DNA from: a virus
Taxonomy: Duplodnaviria > Heunggongvirae > Uroviricota > Caudoviricetes
Direction: 5' to 3' (one strand)
Virus record (IMG/VR): IMGVR_UViG_3300020050_015720
Length of the DNA: 33,082 nt
Of this stretch, positions 1,165 through 19,300 are shown piece by piece (position 1 is the stretch's first letter; every line of letters starts with the position of its first letter). The translations under genes were made by a program, and so were the position numbers. Below the pieces are notes generated by a model. It did not search any database and was not told the origin of the DNA. It worked only from the letters and a program-made list of their open reading frames with translations.

Positions 1165-1548
1165 GATAAACAACAATATAATTTGTTCCTTGCTTGTCCC
1201 ACCGGATAACGCAAAGAGTCGTTTGATTGGCCGAAATTGACCGGATTAACCCGAAACTATCTACTTTCGGCTAAAGTAGTACATATATATATAGGTGTAA
1301 GATCGTTACACCATAATAACAGGCAGGAAAAAAATATTGCAAAAGCAAAAAGCAAAACAATAGACCCCTACCCCATTTGTTCCGTCAAAAGCGAAGCGGG
1401 GGTAGTTTGTTGGGGGGCAGACAAGGATATGCGCTCTGGGTAAACAAAGGTAGGCGTTCTTATACTTTAGAGTAAACAGCCCTACCCCCTTTTTCCTCAC
1501 ACAGATTCGATGGGGGGCTATTTTTCCTGAAAATATATTGCCTTTTCC

Positions 1549-1579
1549 TTGCATCCACGTATTTATTGTCGTATCTTTG
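1549..1579 (+). promoter_or_regulatory. Bacteroidota primary-sigma promoter (-33 TTG, 20-nt spacer, -7 TATCTTTG) upstream of tRNA-Ile
   Basis: TTG 1549-1551; TATCTTTG 1572-1579 matches the TAnnTTTG consensus. Confidence 0.8.
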
Positions 1580-1618
1580 TAGCTCCTCGATAGAGGAATA
1601 CAAATTATTTGTACCACT

Positions 1619-1780
1619 GGCGGGATAGCTTAGCGCCGTTGTCTGATAAAGCGGTCAATGCTTTCATAAGTATATCGGTATTAAGGCCTTAGAAAGATTC
1701 TAGACTCTATTTCTAAGAGGCAAGGTTAAAGCACCACTCTTATATGGTGGAGATCGTAGGTTCGAATCCTACTCCCGCAA
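1619..1780 (+). tRNA. trnI: tRNA-Ile(UAU) with ~88-nt structured insertion in the D-loop
   Basis: Acceptor GCGGGA 1620-25/TCCCGC 1773-78 (first pair imperfect), A73; D-stem GCTT 1628-31/AAGC 1729-32; anticodon stem CCACT/GGTGG with loop CTTATAT (TAT 1741-43); variable AGATC; T-arm GTAGG-TTCGAAT-CCTAC; CCA not encoded. Confidence 0.8.
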
Positions 1781-1961
1781 CGAAAAAAAATTTAACATGA
1801 ATAATAAACTTATTAATATTGTGGGCGACTACGCATGAGCAAATCCTGACGTAGACTTCAACACCATCCTAGAACGACTCTCACTCACCAGAAAAGTTCT
1901 ATTCGCAAATAGGTATAGTACAAGTAAGGAAACTACGTTCACGGATAACAAAATTAATAGT

Positions 1962-2298
1962 ATGAAAGTAATAGTAGCAGGGTCCAGATCGTTTGACGAC
2001 CAGGCGTTAATGGATACACCAAATAAAGTCTTTTGGATTAGAGGAAATAGTTTCAGGACATGCCAAAGGAGCTGATTCTCTTGGAGAACAAGCAGCAGCT
2101 AATCAGGATATAAAACTTAAGATATTCCCAGCTAATTGGAATCTTCATGGAAAGGCTGCCGGACACATTAGAAATAGAGAGATGGCAAATTATGCGGATG
2201 CTGCCATAGTTTTCTGGGATGGTAAGTCGTCTGGATCTAGGAATATGATTGAAGAGATGGTTTCAATAAAGAAACCAGTACTTATAGTGTCATTTTAA
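1962..2298 (+). pseudogene. SLOG/DUF2493 (YspA-like) protein split by a +1 frameshift near 2031-2034
   Basis: MKVIVAGSRSFDD in one frame; EIVSGHAKGADSLGE...GKAAGHIRNREMA...IVFWDGKSSGSRNMI in the +1 frame; absent from the ORF track. Confidence 0.75.
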
Positions 2299-2371
2299 CT
2301 CTCAAGGAGAAAAGTAAATATGAAATTTAAGGGCTACAACACAGTCTTGAAGAAGACTATAGAATGGGATA

Positions 2372-2644
2372 ATGGAACTAAAGGATAATTTTAAAAGCAG
2401 ACTTATCTACCCCTTACCAAATAAGCGCACTTCTATTGAGGTATATATGGAGCATGAAGATAGGTATTATTTTTGTGGTTGGAATCCATATGATGAGAAG
2501 AAGTATGATAAAGGATATAAACCTGGAGAAGGGTATTTAGGAACAGCTAAGGTCACACAAGGACAGTTTAAAGGTATTGGTTTTCACGCTTGGCAACAAA
2601 ATAACTCAGAGTTTATTTATTATAGAATATTAGATAATGTTTAA
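2372..2644 (+). CDS. Hypothetical protein
   Basis: ORF track; part of a tightly packed operon. Confidence 0.65.
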   Translation: MELKDNFKSRLIYPLPNKRTSIEVYMEHEDRYYFCGWNPYDEKKYDKGYKPGEGYLGTAKVTQGQFKGIGFHAWQQNNSEFIYYRILDNV

Positions 2645-2909
2645 ATTTATAAAGAAAATGATTACAGAAGTTTGTGGATATAGAGATTCGTCAGGTAAGT
2701 TTCATTCTACAAAGGCAGAGGCTATCATCTCAGATATCGCTTTTGATACTTGGAAGAAAGAGTATGTTCCAGGTTCTAGTTCTTATAATAGGCCTAAAGT
2801 TAGTGAATATGAGGCTCTTTTAAGGGGCATGCTAAGACCTGAGTATAAGGAGATGTTATTAGATCTTATATCTTCTATATCCGATGAAAAAACTTGTAAA
2901 CCTTGTTAA
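2637..2909 (+). CDS. Hypothetical protein (paralogue of 3424-3726)
   Basis: ORF track; overlaps upstream stop; N-terminal ITEVCGYRDSSGKFHSTKAEA motif. Confidence 0.7.
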   Translation: MFKFIKKMITEVCGYRDSSGKFHSTKAEAIISDIAFDTWKKEYVPGSSSYNRPKVSEYEALLRGMLRPEYKEMLLDLISSISDEKTCKPC

Positions 2910-2910
2910 T

Positions 2911-3054
2911 ATGAGAGAAGAACTAATAGATGAACTAATAAGATTACTTATAGATTTTTTAAAATCTGAAGAAGATCCACTGACCTTTCTATATGAAGGA
3001 GAGGGACAAATTTCAGTTAATAGAATAATGGAATGGATAGCAGAAAAGAACTAG
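2911..3054 (+). CDS. Small hypothetical protein (47 aa, MREELIDELIRLLIDFLKS...)
   Basis: Manually translated; fills the gap between adjacent ORFs. Confidence 0.6.
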   Translation: MREELIDELIRLLIDFLKSEEDPLTFLYEGEGQISVNRIMEWIAEKN

Positions 3055-3057
3055 AAG

Positions 3058-3246
3058 ATGGTAACACAGGACAGATCTAAGATAAATTGGAATAAGCCAG
3101 TTAGGATTGTACTAGATGGTAAAGTTATAACTGTAAAGAGGTATGGATATGCTTATTTTAGCTATGATCCAAAGGAACCTTGGCGTATAGGAGATTTTTT
3201 AATAGAAGAAAAACATATTACACATGTCGAACAAGATCAAGACTAA
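3058..3246 (+). CDS. Hypothetical protein
   Basis: ORF track; operon packing. Confidence 0.65.
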   Translation: MVTQDRSKINWNKPVRIVLDGKVITVKRYGYAYFSYDPKEPWRIGDFLIEEKHITHVEQDQD

Positions 3247-3442
3247 GGCTAATCTATACGAAATTGAGTTAGGGGAGCAGCTTCCTCACAAGGATTATCA
3301 GTGGAGAGTCTATATGGATGGTGACGAGATCTTAGTAAAGGATCCGTTCTATAGGTTTCAGGCCGTAGATTTAAGGCACGCTATTCAGCTTATATCAAAA
3401 ACTATTTATAAAGGTAATATAAAATGTATAACAAAGAAATAA
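3224..3442 (+). CDS. Hypothetical protein
   Basis: ORF track; overlaps both neighbours. Confidence 0.65.
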   Translation: MSNKIKTKANLYEIELGEQLPHKDYQWRVYMDGDEILVKDPFYRFQAVDLRHAIQLISKTIYKGNIKCITKK

Positions 3443-3726
3443 CGCCAGTCTGTGGTGTCTACGATAGGAATGGTAGATTTCATACAACACAGGATGAGGC
3501 ATTAAAGGCTAACTATAGGGAAGACGTCCAGGATTGGAAGAACCTAGTAGCAAAAACCCTTATTGTACGGGGCCACTTTGGTTATGTGGAGTTGGCAGAT
3601 AATCCTGAAACACTAAGAGCGTTAGCGGACGCTCATCCTAGATACGGTAAGAAAAAAGAGAATTCACACTTAAAGCCCAGGGTAATATGTCCACCACAGA
3701 CGAACTCTTTTATGAACTCCCTCTAG
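3424..3726 (+). CDS. Hypothetical protein (paralogue of 2637-2909)
   Basis: ORF track; ITPVCGVYDRNGRFHTTQDEA motif. Confidence 0.7.
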   Translation: MYNKEITPVCGVYDRNGRFHTTQDEALKANYREDVQDWKNLVAKTLIVRGHFGYVELADNPETLRALADAHPRYGKKKENSHLKPRVICPPQTNSFMNSL

Positions 3727-3932
3727 CTCTACACAAGAAGAATAAGCCACAGGAATTGGCTTATCTAAATGTGACAAAGGAAGGTACACAGATTGTGTTA
3801 AAATACACTAATGTTTTAGAGCAGGATATAGTGAAGGTGTATGGAAATAGCATGGAAATCGTGTTTGAGGCTGCTTTATTTCAGCTTGAAGAACCAGATT
3901 TTAGGCAAAAATACACTCTAATTTACACTTAA
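3687..3932 (+). CDS. Hypothetical protein
   Basis: ORF track. Confidence 0.65.
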   Translation: MSTTDELFYELPLALHKKNKPQELAYLNVTKEGTQIVLKYTNVLEQDIVKVYGNSMEIVFEAALFQLEEPDFRQKYTLIYT

Positions 3933-3976
3933 AAATAGATAGGGCTATAAAAAAAAACTTTTTTTTGCCAAAAAAC

Positions 3977-4007
3977 TTGACATTTGTTTTTAAATGTTGT
4001 ATCTTTG
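3977..4007 (+). promoter_or_regulatory. Bacteroidota-type promoter
   Basis: TTG 3977-79, 20-nt spacer, TATCTTTG 4000-4007. Confidence 0.85.
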
Positions 4008-4025
4008 TGGTAAATTACAAATAAG

Positions 4026-4277
4026 TTGATTTACTTCATTGTTACCGAGGATTATCAATATATGAAAATAGGTTTCTCCAAAGACCCAGCAAGAAGATTA
4101 AGAGGTCTTCAAACAGGATGTCCCTACAGATTACGTATATTGTTCACTATTCCGGGTTCTAAAGAACTTGAAGCACACTTACACACAGTTTATCATAATT
4201 ATAGAATTAATGGTGAATGGTTTCAAATTGAACCGTCCCTCTTACATTCAGTTTATGAACATATTACTGCCAATTAG
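4026..4277 (+). CDS. GIY-YIG superfamily T5orf172/MUG113-like protein
   Basis: IYFI...MKIGFSKDPARRLRGLQTGCP...E..LH..Y...RINGEWF motifs; TTG start. Confidence 0.85.
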   Translation: MIYFIVTEDYQYMKIGFSKDPARRLRGLQTGCPYRLRILFTIPGSKELEAHLHTVYHNYRINGEWFQIEPSLLHSVYEHITAN

Positions 4278-4664
4278 TAATTTACAGCAACCTGTAGAAC
4301 TAGACTACAGATCAGCCCTCAGACATCAATGCAAAAAATAGTCCTGGGTTCAGACGTCGGGTTATAACTGCGAAGAGCAGCCAATTGTCCCCGATAGTTG
4401 CGAAAATATCTAAAAGAAATAGAGTTGTTAGTATCATAAGTGTTCTAGTAGGGCACATTATTTTCGCTTATGTGGGGTAACCTCTCCTAAAAAAGAGGTA
4501 GGACTGCTAACTTCTAAGTCTTTAGATAAATGCCAAAACCGTTTTTCGCCCTGGAAAACGGTAGGGCATAGCTATGTCTTCCCCTGAGCTCACCTACCGC
4601 TCATCCCCAGCGGGGAACTTGAGCGAAAAAAATTAACATTTTTTAGAAAATAATTACTAATTTA

Positions 4665-4696
4665 TTTGGATTTGGCTCAATTATGTTGTATCTTTG
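4665..4696 (+). promoter_or_regulatory. Bacteroidota-type promoter
   Basis: TTTG 4665-68, 20-nt spacer, TATCTTTG 4689-96; ATG at 4714. Confidence 0.85.
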
Positions 4697-4713
4697 TACT
4701 AAATTAAGTTTAT

Positions 4714-5079
4714 ATGAGAATGAATATAACAGCTTCTACTACAGAAGACTACTACTATAGGGCTCTAAAGCTTATATCTTACGGAGCACCTAAAGGCAAG
4801 AATCTGTTAGATTCAGAAGCTGCGCTACTAGCTAAGTTCTTGGACTTACCTCCAAAGGAAAGGTATTATCCCTTCTCTACAAAGGCTAGAAAGATGATAG
4901 CGGCACTCTATGTACCTACTGTTACTAAACAGGCTCTCTCTCAGAAGATCACTTCTATGGTGAATAAAGGGTATTTGATTAGGGATGAGGATAATTTTAT
5001 AGACTTTAATCCAGTTATAAAGAAACTACTGAAGCATGAAGATTTACGAATTGACCTACTCTATAGACCCGCTGATTAA
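4714..5079 (+). CDS. Hypothetical protein, possible C-terminal winged helix
   Basis: ORF track; LSQKITSMVNKGYLIRDEDNFIDFNP resembles a wHTH recognition helix and wing. Confidence 0.6.
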   Translation: MRMNITASTTEDYYYRALKLISYGAPKGKNLLDSEAALLAKFLDLPPKERYYPFSTKARKMIAALYVPTVTKQALSQKITSMVNKGYLIRDEDNFIDFNPVIKKLLKHEDLRIDLLYRPAD

Positions 5080-5389
5080 AGAAACAGCAGAAGCCCTAAA
5101 TCTGCCTATAGATGTGGTACACAAGGTAATTATGTTCGAAGGGCATATTATAAATGAGAATTATAAAACCTGGAAGTATGTAGGATTCAGACTAGAGGAC
5201 CTCGGATCGCTGTACTTAAAACCTCACCTTTTTAACAAGGCTATGAGAACAATGATAAATAAGGCGAGAAGGTTTCCAGATGGGTCTTATAAGAAGTTAT
5301 TAGCTAACGCCTGGAAGTTGAGACACCAGGTCTATGAATATAGAAAATCACGAAAATTTAGGGAACGATTTGGTTCCTGGCACACATAA
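5036..5389 (+). CDS. Divergent HU/IHF-like DNA-binding protein (start uncertain)
   Basis: LIKETAEALNLPIDVVHKVI...FRLEDLGSLYLK pattern; IHF-like genes are typical near crAss-like capsid modules. Confidence 0.5.
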   Translation: MKIYELTYSIDPLIKETAEALNLPIDVVHKVIMFEGHIINENYKTWKYVGFRLEDLGSLYLKPHLFNKAMRTMINKARRFPDGSYKKLLANAWKLRHQVYEYRKSRKFRERFGSWHT

Positions 5390-5394
5390 GATAT

Positions 5395-5619
5395 ATGTCA
5401 ACATCAGCAAAGTATAATAGAGCACTATCAGATATGCAGTATATGATGCAGCAGCATCAGCTTCATCTTACTACAATACAGACTCTAACAATTCTCTTAG
5501 AGAAGATTCAAGCAGATCCTGAACTTAAGGATCTAAAGCTTCTTACTGCAAAGGCTCTAATGGACCATATTAAACCTCTCACTAAATCTCCTATAGAACA
5601 AAATGAAATTATTGGGTAA
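5395..5619 (+). CDS. Hypothetical protein
   Basis: ORF track. Confidence 0.65.
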   Translation: MSTSAKYNRALSDMQYMMQQHQLHLTTIQTLTILLEKIQADPELKDLKLLTAKALMDHIKPLTKSPIEQNEIIG

Positions 5620-5959
5620 TAGGATTCTAATTCAATTAGATAAAGAAGATTCAAATACAACACTACCTTCTGGTATTGAAGTCCCATTCGTGAAGTTTGA
5701 AGAGACTGATGGGGGTAAGTTAAAGGCTAGGGTAACTAACGAGCCCTATTTAGCTCAGGGTACCGTGATAGATATATCCGACTATGCTCTGAAGCTTCTA
5801 AAAGATGAAGGCTACACGCTAGCTGTTGGTGATAGAGTATTGGTTAATCCGATGTCAGTTTCACCTAATTATCAATTTTTCACTGATCGATCATCAAAGG
5901 TCTTATTGTTCGATGGTAAGATCTCTATACCTACCTCGCATTTAGAGGCAATAATTTAA
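5603..5959 (+). CDS. groES: GroES-like co-chaperonin
   Basis: MKLLGNRILIQ...TTLPSGIEVP (mobile loop)...QGTVIDIS...LAVGDRVLV. Confidence 0.8.
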   Translation: MKLLGNRILIQLDKEDSNTTLPSGIEVPFVKFEETDGGKLKARVTNEPYLAQGTVIDISDYALKLLKDEGYTLAVGDRVLVNPMSVSPNYQFFTDRSSKVLLFDGKISIPTSHLEAII

Positions 5960-5963
5960 TTAT

Positions 5964-6263
5964 ATGGCAAAGGTTTATAACGCAAACAAACAAGCACAGA
6001 TTTCTAAGGTAGCTAAATTAGAGCAGGAGCTTGCTCTTACAAAAGAACAGGCTGCGCAGCTAAAGAATGTAGCTCAAGAATCTGTAAATAGGCTGCTTTT
6101 TATTGAGAGCAAGCTATCTCCACAACTACTTCGTAAGGTTAACTTTTGGAATGTTCTATTCCACTGGAAAGAAGTGGTAGCTATTATCGAGGAAATAATC
6201 TTATTGATTAAGAAGTTCAGGGAGTCTCTCCAAGCTAAACCAGTTGATGACGCTAATCAATAG
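5964..6263 (+). CDS. Hypothetical coiled-coil protein
   Basis: ORF track. Confidence 0.7.
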   Translation: MAKVYNANKQAQISKVAKLEQELALTKEQAAQLKNVAQESVNRLLFIESKLSPQLLRKVNFWNVLFHWKEVVAIIEEIILLIKKFRESLQAKPVDDANQ

Positions 6264-6744
6264 TTTTGATATCTCCAGAGATTTTCATGCCTCTAATCCA
6301 ATGGTGGCGATAGTACTTCCGCCTACTAAGGAAATAGAATCAAAATATTTATGAGCGCTATTCTTATACGCGCACCCTGATTCTAAACTCTATGAACTCT
6401 CTCCACTAGAGAGAAGATCATTGATAGAACAGGATTTCCTAGAAAGAGATCCCTCATTCTCTTGGGATGATTATACTGAGCTCTTAACTCTTATTGAGGA
6501 AAAGGTTCTAACAAAAGCTGAGCGTGCTCTAATGCGCTGGGAAAAAACTCTCCACGAAAGAGATGATTTCATAGCTTCTGTTCCTTATAATGAAACAACG
6601 TATGAGATGAAGGATAAGTTATTAGCAAATACACCCAAACTTTGGGATCAGTATGAGTCTATTTCAGAGAAGCTCTTGAAAGAAAGACAAGCTAAAACAC
6701 ATGGAGACATTGAAGAATCTCTAGCTGAAAAGGGAGATATATAA
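6247..6744 (+). CDS. Conserved crAss-like hypothetical protein (165 aa, with TGA 6352-54 read as Trp)
   Basis: ATG 6247 is in frame with track ORF 6421-6744; reads SKYL(W)ALFLYAHPDSKLY across the TGA. Confidence 0.8.
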
Positions 6745-6794
6745 TTTATAGGGTGGGGACTTTAGGTCTGTGGATTCATAATCCTACCACTCAC

Positions 6795-7055
6795 GGGGAT
6801 GCCTGGCTTTGATTAGGATCGGCGCATCGAAATTAGGACTCAGGTCGTCATTGACGTTAAACACTTTTAAATATAAATGACAACTCATTTGAGCCCGCAC
6901 TTTTAGTGCCAAAGAACTCTACCCGCTTTGTTCCTCAAGAGGTAGAAATTGAAGTAGTTAGTACAGTTTACGCTTAGATAGCAATATCTTAAAACCTGTA
7001 ATACTGTCCTATTTTGATGGATTCTAAAACGCGAGTTCGACTCTCGCCATCTCCA
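6795..7055 (+). ncRNA. ssrA: tmRNA (compact, ~261 nt)
   Basis: Acceptor GGGGATG/CATCTCC with G3-U70 wobble and A73; T-arm GCGAG-TTCGACT-CTCGC; TATAAATG resume motif; tag ORF 6879-6977. Confidence 0.9.
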
Positions 7056-7179
7056 AGCGAAATATCATAGATAAACTAGCGCCACACTATTATATGTGGA
7101 ATATATTACCTGGGACCTTTGGGGGCACCGCTGTAAAGTAGGGCCCCTACCCCCAGGCACTCATTTTGAGTTTTAACAC

Positions 7180-7276
7180 AGGGGGGTTTATTCGTTAGGA
7201 GACGAAAGCAAACTTCAAATTTGCGGAAGCTGGTGTCCAAAACCAGATGATACGGGTTCGAGTCCTGTCCCCCTTG
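7180..7276 (+). tRNA. trnW: tRNA-Trp with two tandem anticodon arms (UCA and CCA)
   Basis: Acceptor AGGGGGG/CCCCCTT, G73; arm 1 GCAAA-CTTCAAA-TTTGC (TCA 7215-17); arm 2 CTGGT-GTCCAAA-ACCAG (CCA 7237-39); ATGAT; T-arm ACGGG-TTCGAGT-CCTGT. Confidence 0.85.
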
Positions 7277-7506
7277 CAAAGGCCTGCCCAAGGCCCACTA
7301 TTCAAATAAGCATGATAGTAAGTGTGTCCTGTAAAAAGGAACGCCGGACTTCCCGTCCTCACGTTTAAATAACAATGGGAAAGAAATAAAAGTCTCGAAG
7401 AAACCATAGCTTAGACTATGAATACATACCTTGTGTGGGGAAAGAACACCCTAAGAGAGACGTAACAACACGACTATAATGTTACAAGGTTTGATGTCGT
7501 TGGTTT

Positions 7507-7666
7507 AGAAATATACTTTGGGAAAGTAGCCACCAAGAAAGACAAGGTGAAAGACCAAACGTCCAGGCACTAAATGCCCTCTTCTGTAATAGAGGGTTGA
7601 TGTGATAATGGCGGCGGTGGCGAGTGAAATTACAGCTCTCTGTAGGTTCGAATCCTACTATTTCTT
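7507..7666 (+). ncRNA. 160-nt tRNA-like RNA (acceptor stem plus T-arm enclosing a multibranch body)
   Basis: AGAAATA 7507-13/TATTTCT 7659-65 perfect 7 bp; T-arm 7642-58 identical to that of tRNA-Ile; internal GCCACC/GGTGGC, TACTTT/AAAGTA and CCCTCT/AGAGGG stems. Confidence 0.6.
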
Positions 7667-7672
7667 CTAATA

Positions 7673-7755
7673 CCCATACCGTGGCTTTAGGGATATCTGA
7701 AAGGTAATCGTTACTGGCTGAGTAAAGGAAGGCCTAAAGACGGAGTAACTATGGG
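7673..7755 (+). ncRNA. Candidate structured RNA (three-way junction on a long stem)
   Basis: CCCATA/TATGGG, CCGT/ACGG and CTTTAGG/CCTAAAG stems plus two internal hairpins. Confidence 0.4.
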
Positions 7756-7769
7756 TAAATTTATAAATT

Positions 7770-7934
7770 ATGAGATTAGAATTAAATATATACAACGAAG
7801 GAACATTGATGTCCCATCTTTCTAGATCTATCACCATATCTGAATATCAGATGAAGTCTTATGAGAATATCTATCATTATCTAACTGTAAATCTTCCTTT
7901 ATTTTATGATGTGAGTAAAAACAACAATGCTTAG
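7770..7934 (+). CDS. Small hypothetical protein (54 aa)
   Basis: Manual translation MRLELNIYNEG...; stop overlaps the next ATG. Confidence 0.5.
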   Translation: MRLELNIYNEGTLMSHLSRSITISEYQMKSYENIYHYLTVNLPLFYDVSKNNNA

Positions 7935-8217
7935 GACTCATGATGAGACTGGGCAAGATCATTCGCAGTTATATGAGATTCCGTTTTATTTTGATCTGTC
8001 TAGAGTCGTTTCAATGCGACCCTTAGAAGAGAAAGAACTTCCAATAAAGTTTCGAAGAAAAACAGCCATTACATTTGGAACTGAGGCAGAAGAATATTAT
8101 ATAAAAGCATCAATAGAAACATTACTAAAATTATTAGGTGGGTCTGATGGTGGTATACAAGTTCAGGAGTTACCTGAAGATACTCCAGTAGCTCCAATCC
8201 TATCTACTCAATTATAA
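7927..8217 (+). CDS. Hypothetical protein
   Basis: ORF track. Confidence 0.7.
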   Translation: MLRTHDETGQDHSQLYEIPFYFDLSRVVSMRPLEEKELPIKFRRKTAITFGTEAEEYYIKASIETLLKLLGGSDGGIQVQELPEDTPVAPILSTQL

Positions 8218-9083: not shown

Positions 9084-10647
9084 AGAAGTAACACAAGATA
9101 AACTATTGCAAGGAGCTAAAACTATTGCTGATATAGTAGGGTCTACCTTAGGCCCAATGGGTAAGAATGTGATTATAGAGACTCAATATGGTGCTATTAC
9201 TGTAACAAAGGATGGTATCACGGTTGCCTCTCATGTAACCTTGGAAGATCCAACAGAGAATATGGCTGCGTCTATTATCAGACAGGCCGCTGATAAGACT
9301 GCCACTCTTGCTGGTGATGGTACAACTACTTCAACAGTAATTGCCGCCGCCTTAGTAAAGCAAGCACTTAAACTAGTTAAGCTTGGTTATCAACCTATTG
9401 ATATAAAGCGTGCTTTTGAGCAGCTCTTGCATAAAACAAGGTTATCATTAACCAAGAAGGCATCTCCTGTTGATTCTGAAGATATATTAAAGATCGCTAC
9501 AATCTCAGCAAATAATGACGAAGTTATTGGCGGCTTAATTCACTCAGCTTTTGAGTATGTTGGCAAGGAAGGCCTAATCACTCTGGGAGATTCTAAGACC
9601 GGTAGAACAGAAGTAGAATTAGTTCCTGGAGTATCTATAAACAAAGGCTTTGCTTCTCCATATTTTATTACTGATTCAGCAAAAGGAGAAGCAGTATTAG
9701 AAAAGCCACTTATTTATATAACTGACAATAAACTACGTACGCTGGAAGATGTTGTTCCTATACTAGAGATGGCACATGAACAGAAGAGATCCCTCTTAAT
9801 TCTTTGTGATTCTATAGATGGACATGCACTTCAGATTTTGGCTGTAAATAAACTCAAAGGAACTGTTAGAGTAGCAGCTGTTGAAGGACCTTCATTTGGA
9901 GAGAATCGAGCTGAACTTTTAAAAGATCTTGCGGCTCTTACTTCAGCAAAAATTCTAAGTAACAATGCGCCAAACTCAGATTTTGGTAAGCACTACTTAG
10001 GAAGAGCTGAAAAGATAATAGTAACAAAAGATAAGACTATTTTTGTAGAACCAGTCCGAAATGAAGCTGAGATAGAAGATCGAGTAAAGATTGTTCAAGA
10101 GCATTTGGCTAACAGTGAAAATGCTTACATGACAACTCAGTATCAGAAACGGTTAGCAGATCTAAATGCAAAAGTAGCATCTATTAATGTTGGGGCTCCC
10201 ACCGAGACAGAACAAAAAGAAGTAAAGGATAGAGTAGATGATGCTCTTAGAGCTACCTCAGCAGCTGTTGCTAAAGGTTACTTGTTAGGAGGTGGTACTG
10301 CTCTTTTATGGGTAGCAGAAGAACTCCAATCGGATAATCCTATCACACAAGCTTTTACAGACGCATTAAAAGAGCCTCTTAGGGTTATTATAAATAATGC
10401 TGGTAGGAATGCTGAGGCAATCATAGAAAAAATCACAGACAAAAATGATCCTGAGTATGGATATAATGCTAGGACATTAGAATTTGACAATTTAAAGACC
10501 AGAGGAATTATTGATCCTTTATTAGTCGTAGAACAGGCGGTCACAAACGCTGTTTCAGCAGCAAACATGTTGATCTTATCAGATGTTGCGCTAACTAATT
10601 TGGATAGAACTCCTCCATATTCTCCTCCGGCTATGGACTATGCTTAA
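9052..10647 (+). CDS. groEL: Chaperonin GroEL (Cpn60)
   Basis: TLGPMGKNVII, ITVTKDGITVA, AGDGTTTSTV, GGGTALL and GIIDP motifs; 531 aa. Confidence 0.97.
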   Translation: MSMPIKEISYKEVTQDKLLQGAKTIADIVGSTLGPMGKNVIIETQYGAITVTKDGITVASHVTLEDPTENMAASIIRQAADKTATLAGDGTTTSTVIAAALVKQALKLVKLGYQPIDIKRAFEQLLHKTRLSLTKKASPVDSEDILKIATISANNDEVIGGLIHSAFEYVGKEGLITLGDSKTGRTEVELVPGVSINKGFASPYFITDSAKGEAVLEKPLIYITDNKLRTLEDVVPILEMAHEQKRSLLILCDSIDGHALQILAVNKLKGTVRVAAVEGPSFGENRAELLKDLAALTSAKILSNNAPNSDFGKHYLGRAEKIIVTKDKTIFVEPVRNEAEIEDRVKIVQEHLANSENAYMTTQYQKRLADLNAKVASINVGAPTETEQKEVKDRVDDALRATSAAVAKGYLLGGGTALLWVAEELQSDNPITQAFTDALKEPLRVIINNAGRNAEAIIEKITDKNDPEYGYNARTLEFDNLKTRGIIDPLLVVEQAVTNAVSAANMLILSDVALTNLDRTPPYSPPAMDYA

Positions 10648-12895
10648 AGCAACAGATGTGGTAATCAAAGATATACCACAATACCACCCCCTCTCGGTGG
10701 ATTACAAAAATTTTTGGAGAGAACAAAGAAGAAAGTGTATTGAAGGTGCTTGGGCCAGTGGGATGTATATTCCGCCGGCCCTTTACTATTATGTAAACTT
10801 TCATACTATACGACTGAATAAGAAAGGATCAGCCTTAAAGACCTTTGATCGGCCCTGGTTAAGGGATGTTGAGTATAGATTCTTTAATTACTATACTGAG
10901 GCTAGGGGTTTCTCTGGATTTGCTGATGACGATGAATATTCATCAAATGTAATATTGTTAGACGAAGATATAACGGATGATATATTGATGTTGTATCACC
11001 CTAATACTATGTCATCCTCGACAGGCCAAAGGAAAACATATGTCCCAGCTAGAAAGGCTTTGTTCCAAACTTATGAACAACCTCTTGGAAGGGCGTTATT
11101 TGAGAACCCATTGCAGAATTTCATGCTATTAGGCTCCCGTGAGTCCGGCAAGTCTTACATGGTTTCAAGTTTAATTGGGCATAATTTTTTAATGGATGGT
11201 GCAACTGTCTATAATGAATTTACTCGTAAATATCCCGATCCAGTCGAACTCTTAGTAGGAGCTGAAAAGTCGGACAGATCCGCCGATCTATTAAAAAAGG
11301 TTAGAGACGCTTTTGACCAGTTACCAGGAAAACAGTCTTTGCATGATCGTACATACCCATCCCCATTCTCCAAAAGATATAAGGGATCTTGGGAAGTAAA
11401 TAAGGAGATCATTGCCGAATATAAAAAGAAGGAGCAAGGAGCCTGGGAAGTATCGGGCTCTAAATCATCTATAAAGCATAGATCTTTCGCAGCTAATTCC
11501 TTTGCAGCACAAGGTACTCGTCCACTACTACTAGTTTTAGAAGAAGCGGGTATGTTTAGTGGCCTAAAAGATGTGTATGCCAACACTGTGGATAACCTTA
11601 GAAACGGCCTACGAAAGACAGGCATGCTTATGATGCTTGGTACCGGTGGTGACATGACCCGTGGTACTTTAGATGCCGCCGAGATGTTTTATGAACCAGA
11701 TAAATATGGTATATTAGCTTTTGAAGATACTTGGGAGCACAGAGGTAAGATAGGTTATTTTCTTCCAGCTTATGAAGTACTCAATGAATATAAGGACCCA
11801 GAAACAGGTGTGTCTAATATAGATGCAGCGAGAAAGGCCCTTATAAATGTAAGAAAAAAGAAAGCTGGAGATTCTGGTGGGTCTGAAGCACTAAACAAGG
11901 AAATGCAATATCGTCCTATTGTGCCTTCCGAAATGTTCTTAACTAAGACAGCTAACATATTTCCTACGGCTGAATTAAGGCGACGATTGTCTGAGATTCA
12001 AACCCACAAAATGCAGGATTACTTAGAAAAGAAGGCAGTCCTATATTTTGACCCAGACGCCAAAGTTTATAATGGAGTAAACTACGAGATTAATGAAAAA
12101 CTCACAGCCATCAACAAGTTTCCTTATGAAGGCGAAGAATTAGAAGGAGCGGTTATACTGTATGAACTTCCAAAACTTATAGACAGTGCTGTGCCAAAAG
12201 ACGCCTATATAATAGGGTGTGACCCCTATAAAGATGATGGGCAAAGTGGAACTTCTTTAGCCTCTATATATGTTATCAAGACAAACAAGTACCCATCAAC
12301 TGTCGGATTCTCTGAGATAGTTGCGACCTACATAGGGCGCCCTTACCTTGGTAAAAATCAAGTGAACGAAATTCTCTATAAACTCTCTCTTTTCTATGGA
12401 AATGCAAAGATATACTTTGAGAATAACGTAGGTAACGTAAAAGATTATTTTGAGAAGATAAGACGTTTAGACCTCCTAGCCAGACAACCAGTTACGATAT
12501 TTAATCGAAAGGCTGCTTTTGAGGGATCTCCTCAAGTAGTCTATGGGTATCCATTATCAAACGATAAAGTAAAATGGGAGGCCCTTCAATATGTTAGATC
12601 TTTCTTACTAGAGGATCGAGGAGATGGAAAAAGAAATTTGGATTTAATACCAGATCCAGCACTATTACAAGAATTAATAGCTTACAACTTAGACGGTAAC
12701 TTCGACCGCGTTTCATCCCTTATAGGATGTATCTTAGGACTAGAAGAGTTATCAAATTTAGAGCAACGTAAGGTTTTTCACCAGGCAGAGTTTTCTCAGT
12801 TAGAAAAAGACCTTGATCGGCTTATTATAAATAATAATAGATTATTTAATGTTCAATTTACCCAAACAACGACAGTCCTACGAAGCGAAGTCTAA
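10640..12895 (+). CDS. terL: Terminase large subunit, crAss-like
   Basis: Walker A GSRESGKS, Walker B LLVLEEAG, GTGG motif, nuclease IIGCDPY and FDRVSSL; directly upstream of portal. Confidence 0.93.
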   Translation: MLKATDVVIKDIPQYHPLSVDYKNFWREQRRKCIEGAWASGMYIPPALYYYVNFHTIRLNKKGSALKTFDRPWLRDVEYRFFNYYTEARGFSGFADDDEYSSNVILLDEDITDDILMLYHPNTMSSSTGQRKTYVPARKALFQTYEQPLGRALFENPLQNFMLLGSRESGKSYMVSSLIGHNFLMDGATVYNEFTRKYPDPVELLVGAEKSDRSADLLKKVRDAFDQLPGKQSLHDRTYPSPFSKRYKGSWEVNKEIIAEYKKKEQGAWEVSGSKSSIKHRSFAANSFAAQGTRPLLLVLEEAGMFSGLKDVYANTVDNLRNGLRKTGMLMMLGTGGDMTRGTLDAAEMFYEPDKYGILAFEDTWEHRGKIGYFLPAYEVLNEYKDPETGVSNIDAARKALINVRKKKAGDSGGSEALNKEMQYRPIVPSEMFLTKTANIFPTAELRRRLSEIQTHKMQDYLEKKAVLYFDPDAKVYNGVNYEINEKLTAINKFPYEGEELEGAVILYELPKLIDSAVPKDAYIIGCDPYKDDGQSGTSLASIYVIKTNKYPSTVGFSEIVATYIGRPYLGKNQVNEILYKLSLFYGNAKIYFENNVGNVKDYFEKIRRLDLLARQPVTIFNRKAAFEGSPQVVYGYPLSNDKVKWEALQYVRSFLLEDRGDGKRNLDLIPDPALLQELIAYNLDGNFDRVSSLIGCILGLEELSNLEQRKVFHQAEFSQLEKDLDRLIINNNRLFNVQFTQTTTVLRSEV

Positions 12896-15260
12896 AAATA
12901 ATTTTGCTTGGGCTAAAGAGGTTATTGATTCCATACTTAGCTACACGCCAACAAGTCAAGGAGTTATAAACGCGCCAACGTCGGACTACCAAAGAAAATT
13001 ATCAAACTATCAACTCTATAATAATGAGTTGAATCAAGCCGATTTCGAACGAGAGTGTAATCCATTAGGACTAGATGTTGGCCAATTTAAAGACACAATT
13101 CAGCCCTATAATAAAACTTATAATAAGATACAGATCTTACTTTCGGACCTAACAAAACGTCCTTTCAATTATAGAGCCATTCTGGTCAATAGTGAAGGCG
13201 TAAGATCAAAGTTATTCTATAGGGACACACTGTTCAAACAATATATTGAAAAGGTACTTCTAGATGCAAAGCAAACTGCCATGGGTTTAATGCCTGAGGA
13301 CAGTGAAGATACGTTAATAGATCCTAAAGACGTTTCTAGATACATGCGATATGATTATCGTGAGCGTAGGGAATTACTGACCCAGGCTCTCTTACAGTAT
13401 TTTTCTAGAGCTTTAGATATAAAAGATCTAAAGGTAGATACATTCAAGCATGCTCTAATTGCTGGAGAAGAGATTGTGTATGTAGGAACAGAGAATGGAG
13501 AACCAAAAATAACCGTGGTTAATCCATTAGGATTCTTCTGCCACAAGAGCGCTGAAACAAAGTGGATCCAAGATTCACTTTATGCGGGGTATAAAACCTA
13601 TATGACTGTATCAGAAGTACTTGATCGTTATGGTAAGTATCTTTCAGAAGATCAGAAAGAGCAATTGGATACAAATACAGGCACAACCAACCCAGTGCGG
13701 GAATTCACTATGGGTGCCACCGCTAAATACGGTAACTCAGCCTATGACCCTATTCTTGATATTGAGTCAGCCGACCATGGTAGTTACGGCAAACGTAACA
13801 CAGAAGATATACTAGTTTCCCATGTTGAATGGGTATCCCAAAGAAAGGTTGGATTTATAGAGTATCAAAATGAATTTGGGGAGACAGAATCTAAAATGGT
13901 TTCTGAAGATTTTGAGATCCCTACTATCTATACTAAAGAAGTAGTAACCAGAGCTTATGGTGCTAAAACTACGTATTTTATATGGGAAGTTGATGGTGTT
14001 TTCTATAAATTAAATTGGGACTATATTCCTGAAGTTTGGACAGGCACAAAGATTGGGCACAACATCTACACGATGATAGGTCCAAAAGAGCTGCAGTATC
14101 GTTCTGTTGACAATCCATACAAGGTGAGCCTAGGATACCATGGTATTATATATAATGCTATGAATGCGGGCTCAGTCTCTCTTATGGATAGAATGAAACC
14201 TTTCCAATACCTTTACTTTATAGTAATGCATAAGCTTAAAGAGCTAATTGCGCAAGATCAAGGGAAGGTATTTCCTTTTGACATATCTATGGTGGATCCA
14301 AAGATAGGCTTAGAGAAAACACTCTACTATTTAAAGCGTATGAATATAGATCTCTATAATTCATTAGCTAACGGGGATATGCCAGGGCAAAGTCAGAGAG
14401 GCAAGGTTACTGGTGTTGCAGACATGTCAAATATGCAGCATATACTAAATTACATTAGTATACTATCGGCTATTGATGCTCAAATTTCTGAAGTAGCTGG
14501 TGTCTCCAGACAGAGGGAAGGACAAACTACTCCAACTGAAGCAGTATCAAATGCTCAGTCGAACATAATGATGTCAGCGCTTATAACTGAAATCTACTTT
14601 CAGACACATGCAAAACTTTGGGAAAAGATCCTTTCTTCTTTGGTATATACTGCTAAGTACGCTTGGAAAGGTCAGAAGATAATAAAACAATATGTGTTAG
14701 ATGATCTATCATTAGCAACCCTTGAGATGGATGCCGATGAATTATTAGACTGCGATCTCGGTATATTTGTGACAGATTCAGGTAAAGAGCACGAAATGTT
14801 CCAGGCCTTGAAGGGAATTTCTGATGGTCTGTTAAATACAAACAGAGCTACATTCTCCGATCTTATTACTCTGTATGAAAGTAACTCAGTAGCAGAATTG
14901 AAACACGCAATCAAACAGTCAGAGGAGACTACCTTTGCAAGAGAGAGTGAGAATCAACAAGCAGCTTTTCAGGCTTCAAAAGAGGAACAAAAGGCTCAAC
15001 AAGAATTTGAACTCTTGAAGCAACAACTAGAACATGAGCATAAAGAAAGACTAGCGCAAATAGAGGTATTCAAATTCCAACAAGATCTAGATATAGATAA
15101 CAATGGAATTCCCGATCCCTTAGAAGTACAAAAGTTCCTAAATGATGCTAAAAATGATTCTCGTAAACTAGATATTGAAGAGAAAAAATTAGCCCAAGAT
15201 AAGGAATTACGCGAAAAAGAGATCAAAGAAAGAGCTAAAAAGGCCTCTAAAAAAACATAG
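12849..15260 (+). CDS. Portal protein, crAss-like
   Basis: 803 aa; YNKTYNKIQILLSD...RPFNY, EVWTGTKIG and SLMDRMKPFQYLY motifs; charged C-terminus; TerL-portal-X-MCP order. Confidence 0.9.
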   Translation: MFNLPKQRQSYEAKSKNNFAWAKEVIDSILSYTPTSQGVINAPTSDYQRKLSNYQLYNNELNQADFERECNPLGLDVGQFKDTIQPYNKTYNKIQILLSDLTKRPFNYRAILVNSEGVRSKLFYRDTLFKQYIEKVLLDAKQTAMGLMPEDSEDTLIDPKDVSRYMRYDYRERRELLTQALLQYFSRALDIKDLKVDTFKHALIAGEEIVYVGTENGEPKITVVNPLGFFCHKSAETKWIQDSLYAGYKTYMTVSEVLDRYGKYLSEDQKEQLDTNTGTTNPVREFTMGATAKYGNSAYDPILDIESADHGSYGKRNTEDILVSHVEWVSQRKVGFIEYQNEFGETESKMVSEDFEIPTIYTKEVVTRAYGAKTTYFIWEVDGVFYKLNWDYIPEVWTGTKIGHNIYTMIGPKELQYRSVDNPYKVSLGYHGIIYNAMNAGSVSLMDRMKPFQYLYFIVMHKLKELIAQDQGKVFPFDISMVDPKIGLEKTLYYLKRMNIDLYNSLANGDMPGQSQRGKVTGVADMSNMQHILNYISILSAIDAQISEVAGVSRQREGQTTPTEAVSNAQSNIMMSALITEIYFQTHAKLWEKILSSLVYTAKYAWKGQKIIKQYVLDDLSLATLEMDADELLDCDLGIFVTDSGKEHEMFQALKGISDGLLNTNRATFSDLITLYESNSVAELKHAIKQSEETTFARESENQQAAFQASKEEQKAQQEFELLKQQLEHEHKERLAQIEVFKFQQDLDIDNNGIPDPLEVQKFLNDAKNDSRKLDIEEKKLAQDKELREKEIKERAKKASKKT

Positions 15261-16351: not shown

Positions 16352-19300
16352 ATGGCAAATCCTCAATCTTCCTTAATCATTAAACAGTGGGATTCCTTTG
16401 GAGGTTCCTTCATTGATTCCGATTATTTGGCGCAGGCCTATGACGGTGGCAAACCATCTTACCTGCCAGGAGCTCTTATGAAAATCTTTTCATCTGGTTC
16501 CGACTTTTTTAAAATTAAACCCTTCCTTAGCCTTACTGGCATGGGAACAAACGGAGGTCTCGAAGTTGAAAGTGAAGTAGTTCGCTGGAGGCTTCAAGGT
16601 GCAGAGCGCAAATCAGCTCGTGTACTTGAAAATGTAGAGGCTTCAAATCTGACTCCAGGTTTGAATCAAACACCTTTCCGTGTTAAATTAGATCTTGATT
16701 ACTATCAGCATCCTGATGTTATCCAAGGTGAAGACAATGACTTCAACCTTCAGGTAATGGATAAGATTACTGATGGTACTGGAACTATCTATACTCTTCG
16801 TATTTTGACTGATGATCCAACTAAATTCTTGGATCCTAAGTATCTTTCTGCGGGTCGTGCTTTTGATAAAGTATCAACAGCCGTTGCCTCTGAAGCAAAC
16901 GGAGTATTCGGTACCCAACAGTACCCAAACATCTTTGAACTTGCTAGCCAATTAGGCGCTTTTGCTCAGAAGATCGAAGTAACCGATAAGGCTTAACTTT
17001 AGGCCCTTTATATAGAAATATATATCGAAGAAGTTTCTTAATTGCTGGAAACCCCTAAAGACTTAGGTACTTTACAAGTAACAATCCTAAGTATGAAACA
17101 ATGGGCAATCAGCAGCTAAATTATAAAATGGAACATCTACCAAAAACAAAAGGAGATTGGACTTTACTAAGAATTGTAAAGAATAAGCTAGGCAGGGCTA
17201 AACTTAGATTGCAGTGTAAATGTGGAGTTCAAAGAACAGTTGACAAATGAGATTACCTAAATCTCGGAAAAATATCTGAGAAATTAAATTTAGGTTTTTC
17301 ATGCGCAAAATGTGCACACAAACTCTACTGGGCAAACAAAGAGAGCAAAGAGCTCTATAAGCTAATTCATATGGATTACGCTCAGCAAGCAAAAAGGAGA
17401 AATATACTTTTCAATCTAACACAAGAGGAAAGTTATCAATTGTTTACATCTTCTTGCCATTATTGTGGAGTACAGCCCGCGAATATCAAAAAACATGGTA
17501 GAAACAAACAAATCTCTTTCGCGTATCAGGGAATAGATCGAGTAGATCCAAACAAAGGTTATACTCACGATAACGTTCTTCCGGCTTGTCGGCACTGTAA
17601 CTACGCGAAAAGAGAAATGACTTACCTTGAGTTTATATCTTGAGTAAGTACTGTCCATTATAATTTAGTTCAACGACTATCCCCCAAAGGGAGTAGGGCC
17701 AAGTGGTCCGAAACAGAAACCTCCTCTTCTCAGGAGATGATATAGTCTGTTCTCATGGGAAACCATGAGCCGTTTATAAATTTGCCAGTTTATAACGAGA
17801 ATAGTGTAACGAACTATTCTGAACAAAAAGTGGAGACAACAAGGCCGCCTTGGCTTTGAATTCCTTGGCACCGATCCTAATGGTTCTACCAAAACCGTAT
17901 CTAAGTTCCTTCCATATGCTGAAGCTATGATGGTTGATGAACTTTACAAATCCATGGAGTGGGCACTGGTTTACGGTGAAAAATCTACTCTTAAGGGTCC
18001 AGACGGTTACTGGCAAAAAACAGGTCCTGGTGTACGCCAACAATTGAAAGATTCTTGGATTCAGTATCTCAATGGTCCTATTACTGTAAATCTTCTTCAA
18101 GATTTCTTGTTGAACATTTTCTTTGGCCGCACTGACGAAGCAAATCGTGGAATCACAATGATAAACTACCCGTTGTCTCGTGTAATAGTAATATTGCATT
18201 AGAAAACCTTTCTATATGCTGGAAACTCTTAAAGGTTTAGTTCCTATTATAATAGGTGCGAAAGCAGAAACAATACTAAACATTAGCTATGATGAAAAAT
18301 TCTAAGGCCGAAGTAATAGACAATCAGCAGATAACTATAATCAATACATATCTAAAAATAAGATCAATCTCAGGAACAGCAAGAGAACTACGACTCCCTT
18401 ACAGGGCTGTCAATAGAGTTCTTGTTCAGTCAAAATTAGCTGGAATTAAACGAAAGCAAAAAACCAGAACTCTTCAGATTGATTATTTCAAAGAGATCAA
18501 TACGCCGGAGAAAGCCTATTTTTTAGGATTACTTCACGCAGATGGATCCATTGTAAAAAGAACCAATGCAGATAAGTTTAATATGACTATCTCCCTGCAC
18601 GAGCAGGACAAAAAGATACTACTGCGTTTTGCTCAGTGTATTAACCTAGAGCCAGAGAGAGTCACTGCAAATCCCCAACTACGAGGTAGTTTGCAATATA
18701 AAATATCCATTGGTATTCAAGAGTTTATAGAGCCTATTTTAACATTAAAATCTCCGGAGATTTTAAATAAGCTTCCAAGTAATATGTATTCGCATTTTAT
18801 TCGTGGAGTATTTGATGGTGATGGGTCTATTTACAATCATAAAAGTCACGGTGGTAAACAATATTATTACTATGCAAGCTTTATTGGTTACACATGATTA
18901 TTGAATTGAATTCAAGAGGTGTGCCCAGTTAAAGCATCAAAAATCCGAACAACAAAACATAACGGAATTTCGCGCATAGAATATTTTAGCCAAAATGATT
19001 TATTGGACTTGGAAAACTTTCTTTACAAAGACTCAACTGTGCACCTTGATCGAAAGTACTCAAAATTTTTAGATATGAAATTGAATTATAGCATCTCAAC
19101 GACTAAACGAAAGGCGTCCCAACTTAAAAAAGCGGACGATGATATAGTCTAATCTCATTAGAGATAATGAGTTAATAATATGGACGGGACAACTTGGTCA
19201 GCTACTGTTCCACAACGCACTTGTCGCTGTTGCTAATGGTTTCTTGACCGTTGATTCACACTTCGTACGTTCTGCTTCTAATCCTGGTTCTTCTACTCCT

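Follow-up and report, generated by a model that had tools for sequence, protein, structure and literature searches.

Why would a phage encode transfer RNAs (tRNAs) that display, next to the anticodon with which they decode, the anticodon loop of another isoacceptor for the same amino acid? The question is raised by the IMG/VR record IMGVR_UViG_3300020050_015720, a stretch of 33,082 nucleotides (nt) of viral DNA to which we refer here as the window, where an initial annotation, made from the sequence alone, described two oversized tRNAs, one for isoleucine (Ile) with the anticodon UAU and one for tryptophan (Trp) with the anticodon UCA (hereafter RNA1 and RNA2, respectively), each carrying an additional stem-loop with the standard anticodon. 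Both hold up as tRNAs of abnormal size, RNA2 being a 97-nt cloverleaf according to ARAGORN and RNA1 a 162-nt gene with a 90-nt insert in the D loop; the spare loop is confirmed for CCA (Trp) and for GAU (Ile), whereas a second Ile mimic, CAU, is not. The window is part of the genome of a crAss-like phage that reads UGA as Trp and makes heavy use of AUA, which accounts for 43% of the Ile codons in the window, and this phage, to judge from the two predicted structures, carries both forms of the design, the Ile one being elaborated into an extra domain. The best overall explanation, which we hold tentatively, is that the two RNAs are decoders of UGA and AUA whose spare cognate loops would serve as handles for the synthetases of the host.

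The two-armed tRNA-Trp(UCA) and its relatives

ARAGORN returns a full cloverleaf for RNA2, called as a 98-nt 'tRNA-SeC(tca)' at 7180-7277. The acceptor stem has 7 base pairs (bp), begins with A1-U72 and is followed by the discriminator base G73, the CCA end not being encoded; the D stem of 6 bp closes a 4-nt D loop, and the T arm is normal. The anticodon arm, GCAAA-CUUCAAA-UUUGC, presents UCA, and in the variable-arm position there is a second hairpin of 5 bp, CUGGU-GUCCAAA-ACCAG, the loop of which copies the anticodon loop of tRNA-Trp. Thus, the A1-U72 pair and G73 that contribute to bacterial Trp identity are present (rules in PMC9976931), whereas the identity triplet C34-C35-A36 is absent from the anticodon position, which is occupied by UCA, and CCA is confined to the second hairpin. 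In all likelihood, RNA2 is a real, functional tRNA and, as far as its sequence can tell, it is the UGA decoder of this phage, with a Trp acceptor identity and a UCA anticodon arm.

Is the second hairpin a peculiarity of a single gene? A terminase-profile search yielded 80 loci from crAss-like contigs, a sample drawn independently of the tRNAs, and in these loci ARAGORN detects tRNA(UCA) genes in two forms, 3 ordinary ones of 72-77 nt and 7 distinct long ones of 94-100 nt. All seven long genes possess a second hairpin with the loop (G/U)UCCAAA, and all the stems differ. A pattern scan of IMG/VR, followed by a filter for two hairpin stems that was passed by 27 of the 105 viral-contig matches among those listed, expanded this set to at least 25 distinct two-arm tRNA(UCA) genes on many unrelated phage contigs, namely, the window gene and at least 24 others. 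Among the 25 genes listed, the second hairpin has 23 different stems; the spare loop is GUCCAAA in 10, CUCCAAA in 7 and a 9-nt version in 8; and G73 is invariant in the alignment (25/25). These genes define a class of tRNA-Trp(UCA) in which the UCA arm is followed, in the variable-arm position, by a hairpin of at least 4 bp with the loop NUCCAAA, a description that RNA2 fits. When the same pattern was sought in bacterial and archaeal genomes, one of at least 120 matches passed the two-hairpin filter, on a 6.6-kb contig of a metagenome-assembled genome, this proportion and that of the viral contigs both being rough. The initial annotation had taken the recurrence of the design for two amino acids as a sign of selection; for the Trp spare loop, with its 23 stems in 25 genes, maintenance by selection indeed appears very probable.

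The translation of all loci with TGA marked, followed by comparison with homologues, indicates how these phages read the codon. Where the long form is present, the genes for TerL and portal, as well as others, have in-frame TGAs at Trp columns, with Trp in, for example, 45/45, 66/66 and 68/69 homologues. The clear case in the window itself is the conserved open reading frame (ORF) at 6244-6744 (Table 1), and TGA serves as the terminator of only one of the 20 window ORFs. Judging from these columns, UGA is read as Trp in this crAss-like clade, so that the proposed expansion of the code stands for UGA; decoding of AUA, which had been included in it, is no expansion. In one relative (G006, 92% complete), no ordinary tRNA passes the Rfam model at E<=0.001, which leaves the long form as the one discernible decoder of UGA in that genome. 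The genome type, the TGAs at Trp positions and the location of RNA2, ahead of the late genes and among other RNAs of translation, are all reminiscent of the suppressor tRNA(UCA) of phages with TGA-to-Trp recoding (10.1101/2021.08.26.457843; PMC7886860, accessible text). In contrast to the suppressors of Borges et al. and Yutin et al., which that text treats as ordinary tRNAs, RNA2 has a greater length and a conserved second hairpin that copies the CCA loop.

The label assigned by ARAGORN suggests another identity for RNA2, that of a tRNA of the selenocysteine (Sec) or Ser type that is charged by the Ser synthetase (SerRS), such that UGA would be read as Ser or Sec. The 6-bp D stem, the 4-nt D loop, the long extra arm and G73 are all compatible with this assignment, and the best Rfam match of RNA2 is tRNA-Sec. 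That match (RF01852), however, falls short of the gathering score (34.7 against 47 bits), the acceptor and T stems add up as 7+5 rather than 8+5 bp, most members of the two-arm family have an ordinary 4-bp D arm, and the TGAs of phages with long tRNA(UCA) occupy invariant Trp columns, not those of Ser or Cys. The Trp columns, the Rfam score and the 7+5 geometry effectively rule this identity out. More generally, RNA2 shares with the class II tRNAs (Ser, Leu, bacterial Tyr and Sec) a stem-loop between the anticodon and T arms, along with the Sec-like D stem, and in tRNA-Ser and tRNA-Sec, the long variable arm is itself an identity element. To our knowledge, no Trp or Ile tRNA belongs to class II in the textbook sets. 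In the known class II tRNAs, the size and orientation of the arm matter and the sequence of its loop does not (PMC9976931), whereas in RNA2 it is the loop sequence that is conserved and equals the cognate anticodon loop.

Because the D arm is ordinary in most of the two-arm genes, the extra hairpin can be assigned to the variable-arm position, and an alternative pairing of the D stem that is conceivable in RNA2 is not a family feature. This pairing is relevant to the possibility of a two-headed decoder or conformational switch, in which either arm would take the anticodon position, so that UGA and UGG (or AUA and AUY) would both be read. Indeed, the D-stem strand UUCG of RNA2 (7191-7194) could pair with either CGAA (7203-7206) or CGGA (7224-7227), and in one phage locus discussed below, L280, the two Ile arms come in the reverse order. 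The alternative pairing, however, is absent in L082, L014 and L015, and in the latter two, the CCA and T arms are only one nucleotide apart, so that the CCA arm cannot be the anticodon arm of a type-I fold. Furthermore, UGG is readable by UCA through wobble anyway, and a separate tRNA-Trp(CCA) is encoded in the same phages; where a tRNA array holds a long tRNA(UCA), the adjacent tRNA-Trp(CCA) is of normal size, 74-75 nt. A switch therefore seems very improbable, and we return to RNA2 as a UGA decoder with a spare cognate loop.

The giant tRNA-Ile(UAU) and other isoleucine spare loops

The Rfam tRNA model recognises only the 3' part of RNA1 (1716-1780; 30.2 bits against a gathering score of 29) because the true 5' acceptor strand lies about 150 nt upstream, and the full cloverleaf becomes visible solely when the 90-nt insert in the D loop is skipped (Table 1). 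The insert folds into three hairpins, H1 to H3, and the loop of the first contains CUGAUAA, the loop of bacterial tRNA-Ile(GAU), although not as a closed 7-nt loop. The chance of finding a given 7-mer, such as CUGAUAA, in a 90-nt insert is about 0.5%. The CAU mimic of the initial annotation corresponds to H2, a hairpin with the tetraloop UCAU that does not resemble an anticodon loop and reads AUAU in the one available relative.

This relative, the contig IMGVR_UViG_3300020046_007421, was found by a GroEL-based search. There, RNA1 is 94% identical and the neighbouring genes 69-79%, with substitutions that keep the pairing: a U-A pair of the T stem is replaced by C-G, a U.G pair of the anticodon stem by U-A, and an A-U pair in the H3 stem by G.U. 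H1 is identical, and the insert has changed at 5 of its 90 positions compared with 5 of the 72 positions of the tRNA body. The main anticodon is CAU instead of UAU, a switch between U34 and C34 that yields a lysidine-dependent type of AUA decoder and thus retains the potential to decode AUA. This conservation beyond that of the neighbouring genes, with the stems kept, indicates that the gene, insert included, is under constraint. RNA1 is probably a real, functional tRNA and appears as a decoder of the rare codon AUA whose D-loop domain displays the tRNA-Ile(GAU) loop in its first hairpin; whether that spare GAU loop is kept by selection we consider an evenly balanced question.

Could the insert instead be a spacer, or an element akin to an intron, that is excised from the tRNA or stays idle in its mature form, with CUGAUAA being incidental and only the Trp hairpin being a true spare arm? 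With its 90 nt and three hairpins, the insert far exceeds the lone additional hairpin seen in other phage tRNAs of the Ile(UAU) type; it is located at the elbow of the tRNA, where a domain of this bulk would be expected, from the established structure of tRNA, to collide with the ribosome and RNase P; and it is known from one relative, with a 9-nt H1 loop and an H2 'CAU' loop that is not conserved. Conversely, no system is known by which bacteria would splice a 90-nt insert out of a D loop, no Rfam ribozyme or group I intron is detectable in 1400-8000 even at E<=5, the only matches being to tRNA, transfer-messenger RNA (tmRNA) and tRNA-Sec, and the insert is conserved like the tRNA body. The low chance expectation for CUGAUAA, letter for letter, in the loop of a hairpin within an Ile tRNA, together with its match to an independent class of phage Ile tRNAs, also speaks against this possibility, which we deem unlikely.

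In the class in question, the tRNA-Ile(UAU) has its CUGAUAA hairpin at the place of the variable arm; the class is represented by seven loci that were chosen by that very pattern (L334, L336, L348, L372, L398, L419 and L432). RNA1 differs from these in that CUGAUAA lies inside a 9-nt loop and within a D-loop insert. As in the window, the Trp and Ile designs coexist in locus L092, which encodes a 96-nt tRNA(UCA) with the CCA loop and a 91-nt tRNA-Ile(UAU) with the extra loop CAGAUAA, the latter adjoining a normal 74-nt tRNA-Ile(GAU). Thus, within single phages, the arm is restricted to the U34 isoacceptors, the CCA and GAU isoacceptors being of normal size. The extra arms of other phage tRNAs (Asn, His, Pro, Cys and Gly) have no anticodon-like loop, so that the concordance between spare loop and amino acid holds for the two cases in which the wobble base departs from the normal reading of the synthetase. 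Hence the expected agreement between an extra arm and the amino acid to which the main anticodon belongs is borne out for Trp(UCA) and Ile(UAU), with both in L092, and has to be qualified by armless genes in L140 and L194 (see below) and by L280. In L280 (7932-8029), the sole real gene from an IMG/VR scan for a GAU hairpin followed by a UAU arm, the usual layout is inverted, with GAU presented by the anticodon arm and UAU by the loop of a hairpin in the variable-arm position.

Further searches for giant genes of the RNA1 type returned little. When IMG/VR was scanned for exact motifs of the RNA1 insert, and of the leader of a third tRNA-like gene described below (RNA3), the single relative contig was recovered and no other, and a scan of Joint Genome Institute (JGI) metagenomes for RNA1-like genes yielded none. 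The 120 stretches from a looser JGI scan turned out on inspection to be tandem pairs of tRNA-Ile(GAU) and tRNA(CAU/UAU) genes rather than D-loop inserts. Minimum-free-energy folds of RNA1 and RNA3 gave z values of only -2.4 and -2.2, respectively, with a predicted fold that breaks the cloverleaf D stem, and were not relied on.

The genomic surroundings

GroEL, TerL and portal, all encoded in the window, mark it as crAss-like, and TerL has more than 100 homologues on contigs of about 100 kb. A nucleotide search of INPHARED with 1500-8000 found no relative, just a weak match to the SLOG/'GTP-binding' gene of N4-like phages. The segment 1619-7700 is rich in RNAs, on the + strand, with small ORFs of no known family between the RNAs, and Pfam and PHROGs reveal no synthetase, RNA ligase or release factor in it.

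Table 1. Features of the window discussed in the text
Feature	Position	Strand	Basis and remarks
RNA1, tRNA-Ile(UAU)	1619-1780	+	Partial Rfam tRNA match and sequence reading; A73 at 1780
RNA1 acceptor stem	1619-1625/1773-1779		G1.A72 mismatch
RNA1 D stem	1628-1631/1729-1732		G18, G19 at 1724-1725
RNA1 D-loop insert	1634-1723	+	Sequence reading
RNA1 insert, H1	1636-1654	+	5 bp, 9-nt loop GUCUGAUAA, GAU at 1645-1647
RNA1 insert, H2	1659-1672	+	5-bp stem, tetraloop
RNA1 insert, H3	1688-1717	+	8 bp, 14-nt loop
RNA1 anticodon arm	1734-1750		Loop CUUAUAU, UAU at 1741-1743
RNA1 T arm	1756-1772		
YspA/SLOG-family gene	1964-2298		Pfam PF10686; PHROG 289 'GTP-binding domain'
Conserved ORF with one in-frame TGA	6244-6744	+	Open only under code 4; Trp at the TGA column in 27/29 homologues
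tmRNA (phage)	6795-7056	+	Rfam RF00023, 53.4 bits, E 1.8e-18
Nested double hairpin	7108-7160		GC-rich, 3' of tmRNA
RNA2, opal-suppressor tRNA-Trp(UCA)	7180-7276	+	ARAGORN full cloverleaf
RNA2 anticodon arm	7208-7224		
RNA2 second hairpin	7230-7246		Variable-arm position
Non-coding element, 123 nt	7388-7510		Directly upstream of RNA3
RNA3, oversized tRNA-like gene, 161 nt	7507-7667	+	T-arm motif; ARAGORN with introns allowed; outside 1619-7276
GroEL (phage chaperonin)	9052-10647		Match; large ORF 3' of the tRNAs
TerL (large terminase)	10640-12895		Match; large ORF 3' of the tRNAs
Portal	12849-15260		Match; large ORF 3' of the tRNAs
ORF with two in-frame TGAs	17059-17742	+	Open only with both TGAs read through

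The initial annotation had recognised two tRNAs in 1619-7276; it missed the tmRNA between them, and a third tRNA-like gene, RNA3, lies just outside that segment. The T-loop motif GGTTCRANTCC occurs three times in the window (1759, 7255 and 7645) against 0.09 expected, and the third occurrence belongs to this gene. RNA3 has a normal T arm and a covarying 7-bp acceptor stem (AGAAAUA/UAUUUCU in the window, AGAAGUG/CACUUCU in the relative); it has no 7-nt or otherwise canonical anticodon loop and is left out of the amino-acid concordance. Its relatives occupy the same slot in five loci (L002 8477-8581, L022 6333-6446, L023 3616-3733, L027 6952-7069 and L030 2000-2094) and have in common a D region that lacks a stem, UAUACAAGNGGUYNAAGCAG, together with a pair of large-looped helices, whereas the discriminator base varies; a motif scan for this D region found no members beyond the crAss-like clade. 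Two readings of RNA3 were rejected, the ARAGORN call of 'tRNA-Ser(aga) with 76-nt intron', the supposed anticodon arm of which is not common to the relatives, and an acceptor stem GAAGAAA/UUUCUUC (7398), which does not pair in the relative. The non-coding element upstream of RNA3 is 92% identical in L002 and 79% in L027, with surrounding genes at about 70%; it might act as a leader or promoter, or else be a small RNA. Two further odd tRNA-like genes are present in the other close relative, G001 (IMGVR_UViG_3300020036_009452; L578), one of 68 nt with a poor anticodon arm (L578 1383-1450; G001 2315-2382) and one called by ARAGORN as tRNA-Gly(acc), with a 12-nt variable region (L578 1501-1578; G001 2433-2509).

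The tmRNA, which ARAGORN places at the same position in relatives, has a long tag ending in VYA, of about 32 residues in L002 (5350-6175). Directly 3' of the tmRNA, L002 carries an inserted ORF that has in-frame TGAs and features of the zinc-finger/HNH type, and beyond this ORF 26 nt of the tmRNA 3' end are repeated, which gives the impression that this end was the target of a mobile element; in L002, RNA2 is absent from the spot after the tmRNA. In the nested double hairpin, the outer stem is CCUGGG/CCCAGG and the inner one is G-rich; the corresponding sequence of L002 (6183-6240) differs, yet the nested pairing is kept. The YspA/SLOG gene occupies two reading frames with a break near 2010-2030, which could be explained by a frameshift, a sequencing error or programmed slippage. 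At the two TGAs of the ORF at 17059-17742, homologues show no consistent residue.

Spare loops as candidate handles for host synthetases

What, then, could a spare cognate loop be good for? The discriminator base and the anticodon are major elements of Trp identity, and L34 (lysidine) and t6A37 are determinants of Ile identity (PMC9976931); moreover, tRNA-Ile(UAU) is charged poorly by the Ile synthetase (IleRS) of E. coli unless the enzyme is mutated (PMC3575796). The bacterial Trp synthetase (TrpRS) and IleRS depend on anticodon bases, and U34 variants would be expected to be poorer substrates. Under the handle model, the spare hairpin would offer the host synthetase the cognate anticodon loop as an identity element, and the U34 arm would do the decoding on the ribosome. 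The model accounts for the fusion of the arm to exactly these tRNAs, for the conservation of the entire 7-nt loop and for the freedom of the stems to vary, and we regard the mechanism as plausible, if tentative. The same recognition problem is posed by the TilS-independent tRNA-Ile(UAU) of Mycoplasma mobile (Taniguchi et al. 2013, PMC3575796), which, like RNA1, presents a UAU of the unmodified type to AUA. There, however, the solution is on the side of the enzyme (Arg865 in IleRS) and the tRNA is of normal size, whereas RNA1 has the D-loop domain with the GAU-loop hairpin, and no phage IleRS was found in the sequences searched.

Among the window ORFs that were scanned, none was recognised as a synthetase gene, as the initial annotation had stated; the profiles PF00579 (TrpRS/TyrRS) and PF00133 (IleRS) have no match in G001, which is 89% complete, nor does PF00579 in five further relatives (G003-G007), including a complete 103-kb genome, with 14/14 control genomes positive. 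Hairpins that copy an anticodon loop are known from the thrS mRNA operator and from the tRNA-like structure (TLS-Tyr) of brome mosaic virus, where they are reported to be bound by the anticodon-binding domain of the cognate synthetase (PMC9976931; 10.1101/2020.09.18.302638). Those mimics regulate translation or tag the ends of viral RNA, whereas the phage mimic is located inside a predicted elongator tRNA with a different real anticodon.

Several observations weigh against the handle model. Ordinary 72-77-nt tRNA(UCA) genes without the arm are found in sister crAss-like phages (L026, L029 and L058), and one of the short-form phages is a complete 103-kb genome without TrpRS, which implies that the arm is not a general requirement and that the host TrpRS can evidently accept UCA in some settings. 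Likewise, L140 and L194, which have the Trp design, encode several short tRNA-Ile(UAU) genes that bear no arm. The lengths of the linker and stem of the arm vary among tRNA(UCA) genes, and the position of the Ile spare arm is inconsistent, being the D loop in RNA1, the variable-arm position in most others, and reversed in L280. A long variable arm projects from the tRNA core, away from the anticodon site, so that binding by the synthetase would be unusual, and a D-loop domain is likewise not where the anticodon lies. As for RNA1, the H1 loop has 9 nt rather than 7; the giant insert has a single relative, and two near-identical sequences cannot demonstrate selection on the GAU loop; and the CAU anticodon of that relative, if lysidine-modified, would need no handle.

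Some of these facts would be accommodated if the spare hairpins served a partner other than a synthetase, be it a modification enzyme (for example, one acting on A37), a processing or stability factor, or, with the hairpin as a decoy or sponge, anticodon nucleases or tRNA-sensing defences. Conservation encompasses the whole 7-nt loop, including U33 and A37-A38, beyond the triplet, and many proteins that bind anticodon loops read that; the arm differs from gene to gene in position and tether, as a loosely attached bait would; and the short tRNA(UCA) genes of sister phages work without it. A decoy, however, needs no fusion to a tRNA, let alone to an isoacceptor that differs at position 34 only, and the arm-bearing phages also have normal tRNA-Trp(CCA) and tRNA-Ile(GAU), which would already replace cleaved host tRNAs. 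Furthermore, we know of no nuclease specific for tRNA-Trp or tRNA-Ile. On balance, a non-synthetase partner strikes us as rather improbable, and the synthetase handle remains the reading that we prefer.

A broader version of this reading, possible although doubtful at present, is that phages employ a general trick whereby the cognate anticodon loop is copied to the variable arm or the D loop as a charging handle and the U34 variant decodes, an arrangement that would have evolved for Trp and Ile at the least. The recoding of stop codons by phages is already known; how host synthetases come to accept the altered tRNA is not addressed in the literature that we searched, and this search, with subscription journals outside its coverage, found papers on phage recoding and no description of a second anticodon-like arm. 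The conserved spare loop on exactly the wobble-changed tRNAs thus provides a concrete hypothesis, to which the window adds that both designs, for Trp and for Ile, can be found together in a single phage and that the Ile version can take the form of a large D-loop domain. If the handle model holds, it would reveal a new kind of identity element, explain a widespread class of phage tRNAs that is mis-annotated as 'tRNA-Sec' and offer a design principle for orthogonal suppressor tRNAs. tRNA identity could then come from a position other than the anticodon, which would be a new principle for changes of the genetic code, both natural and engineered.

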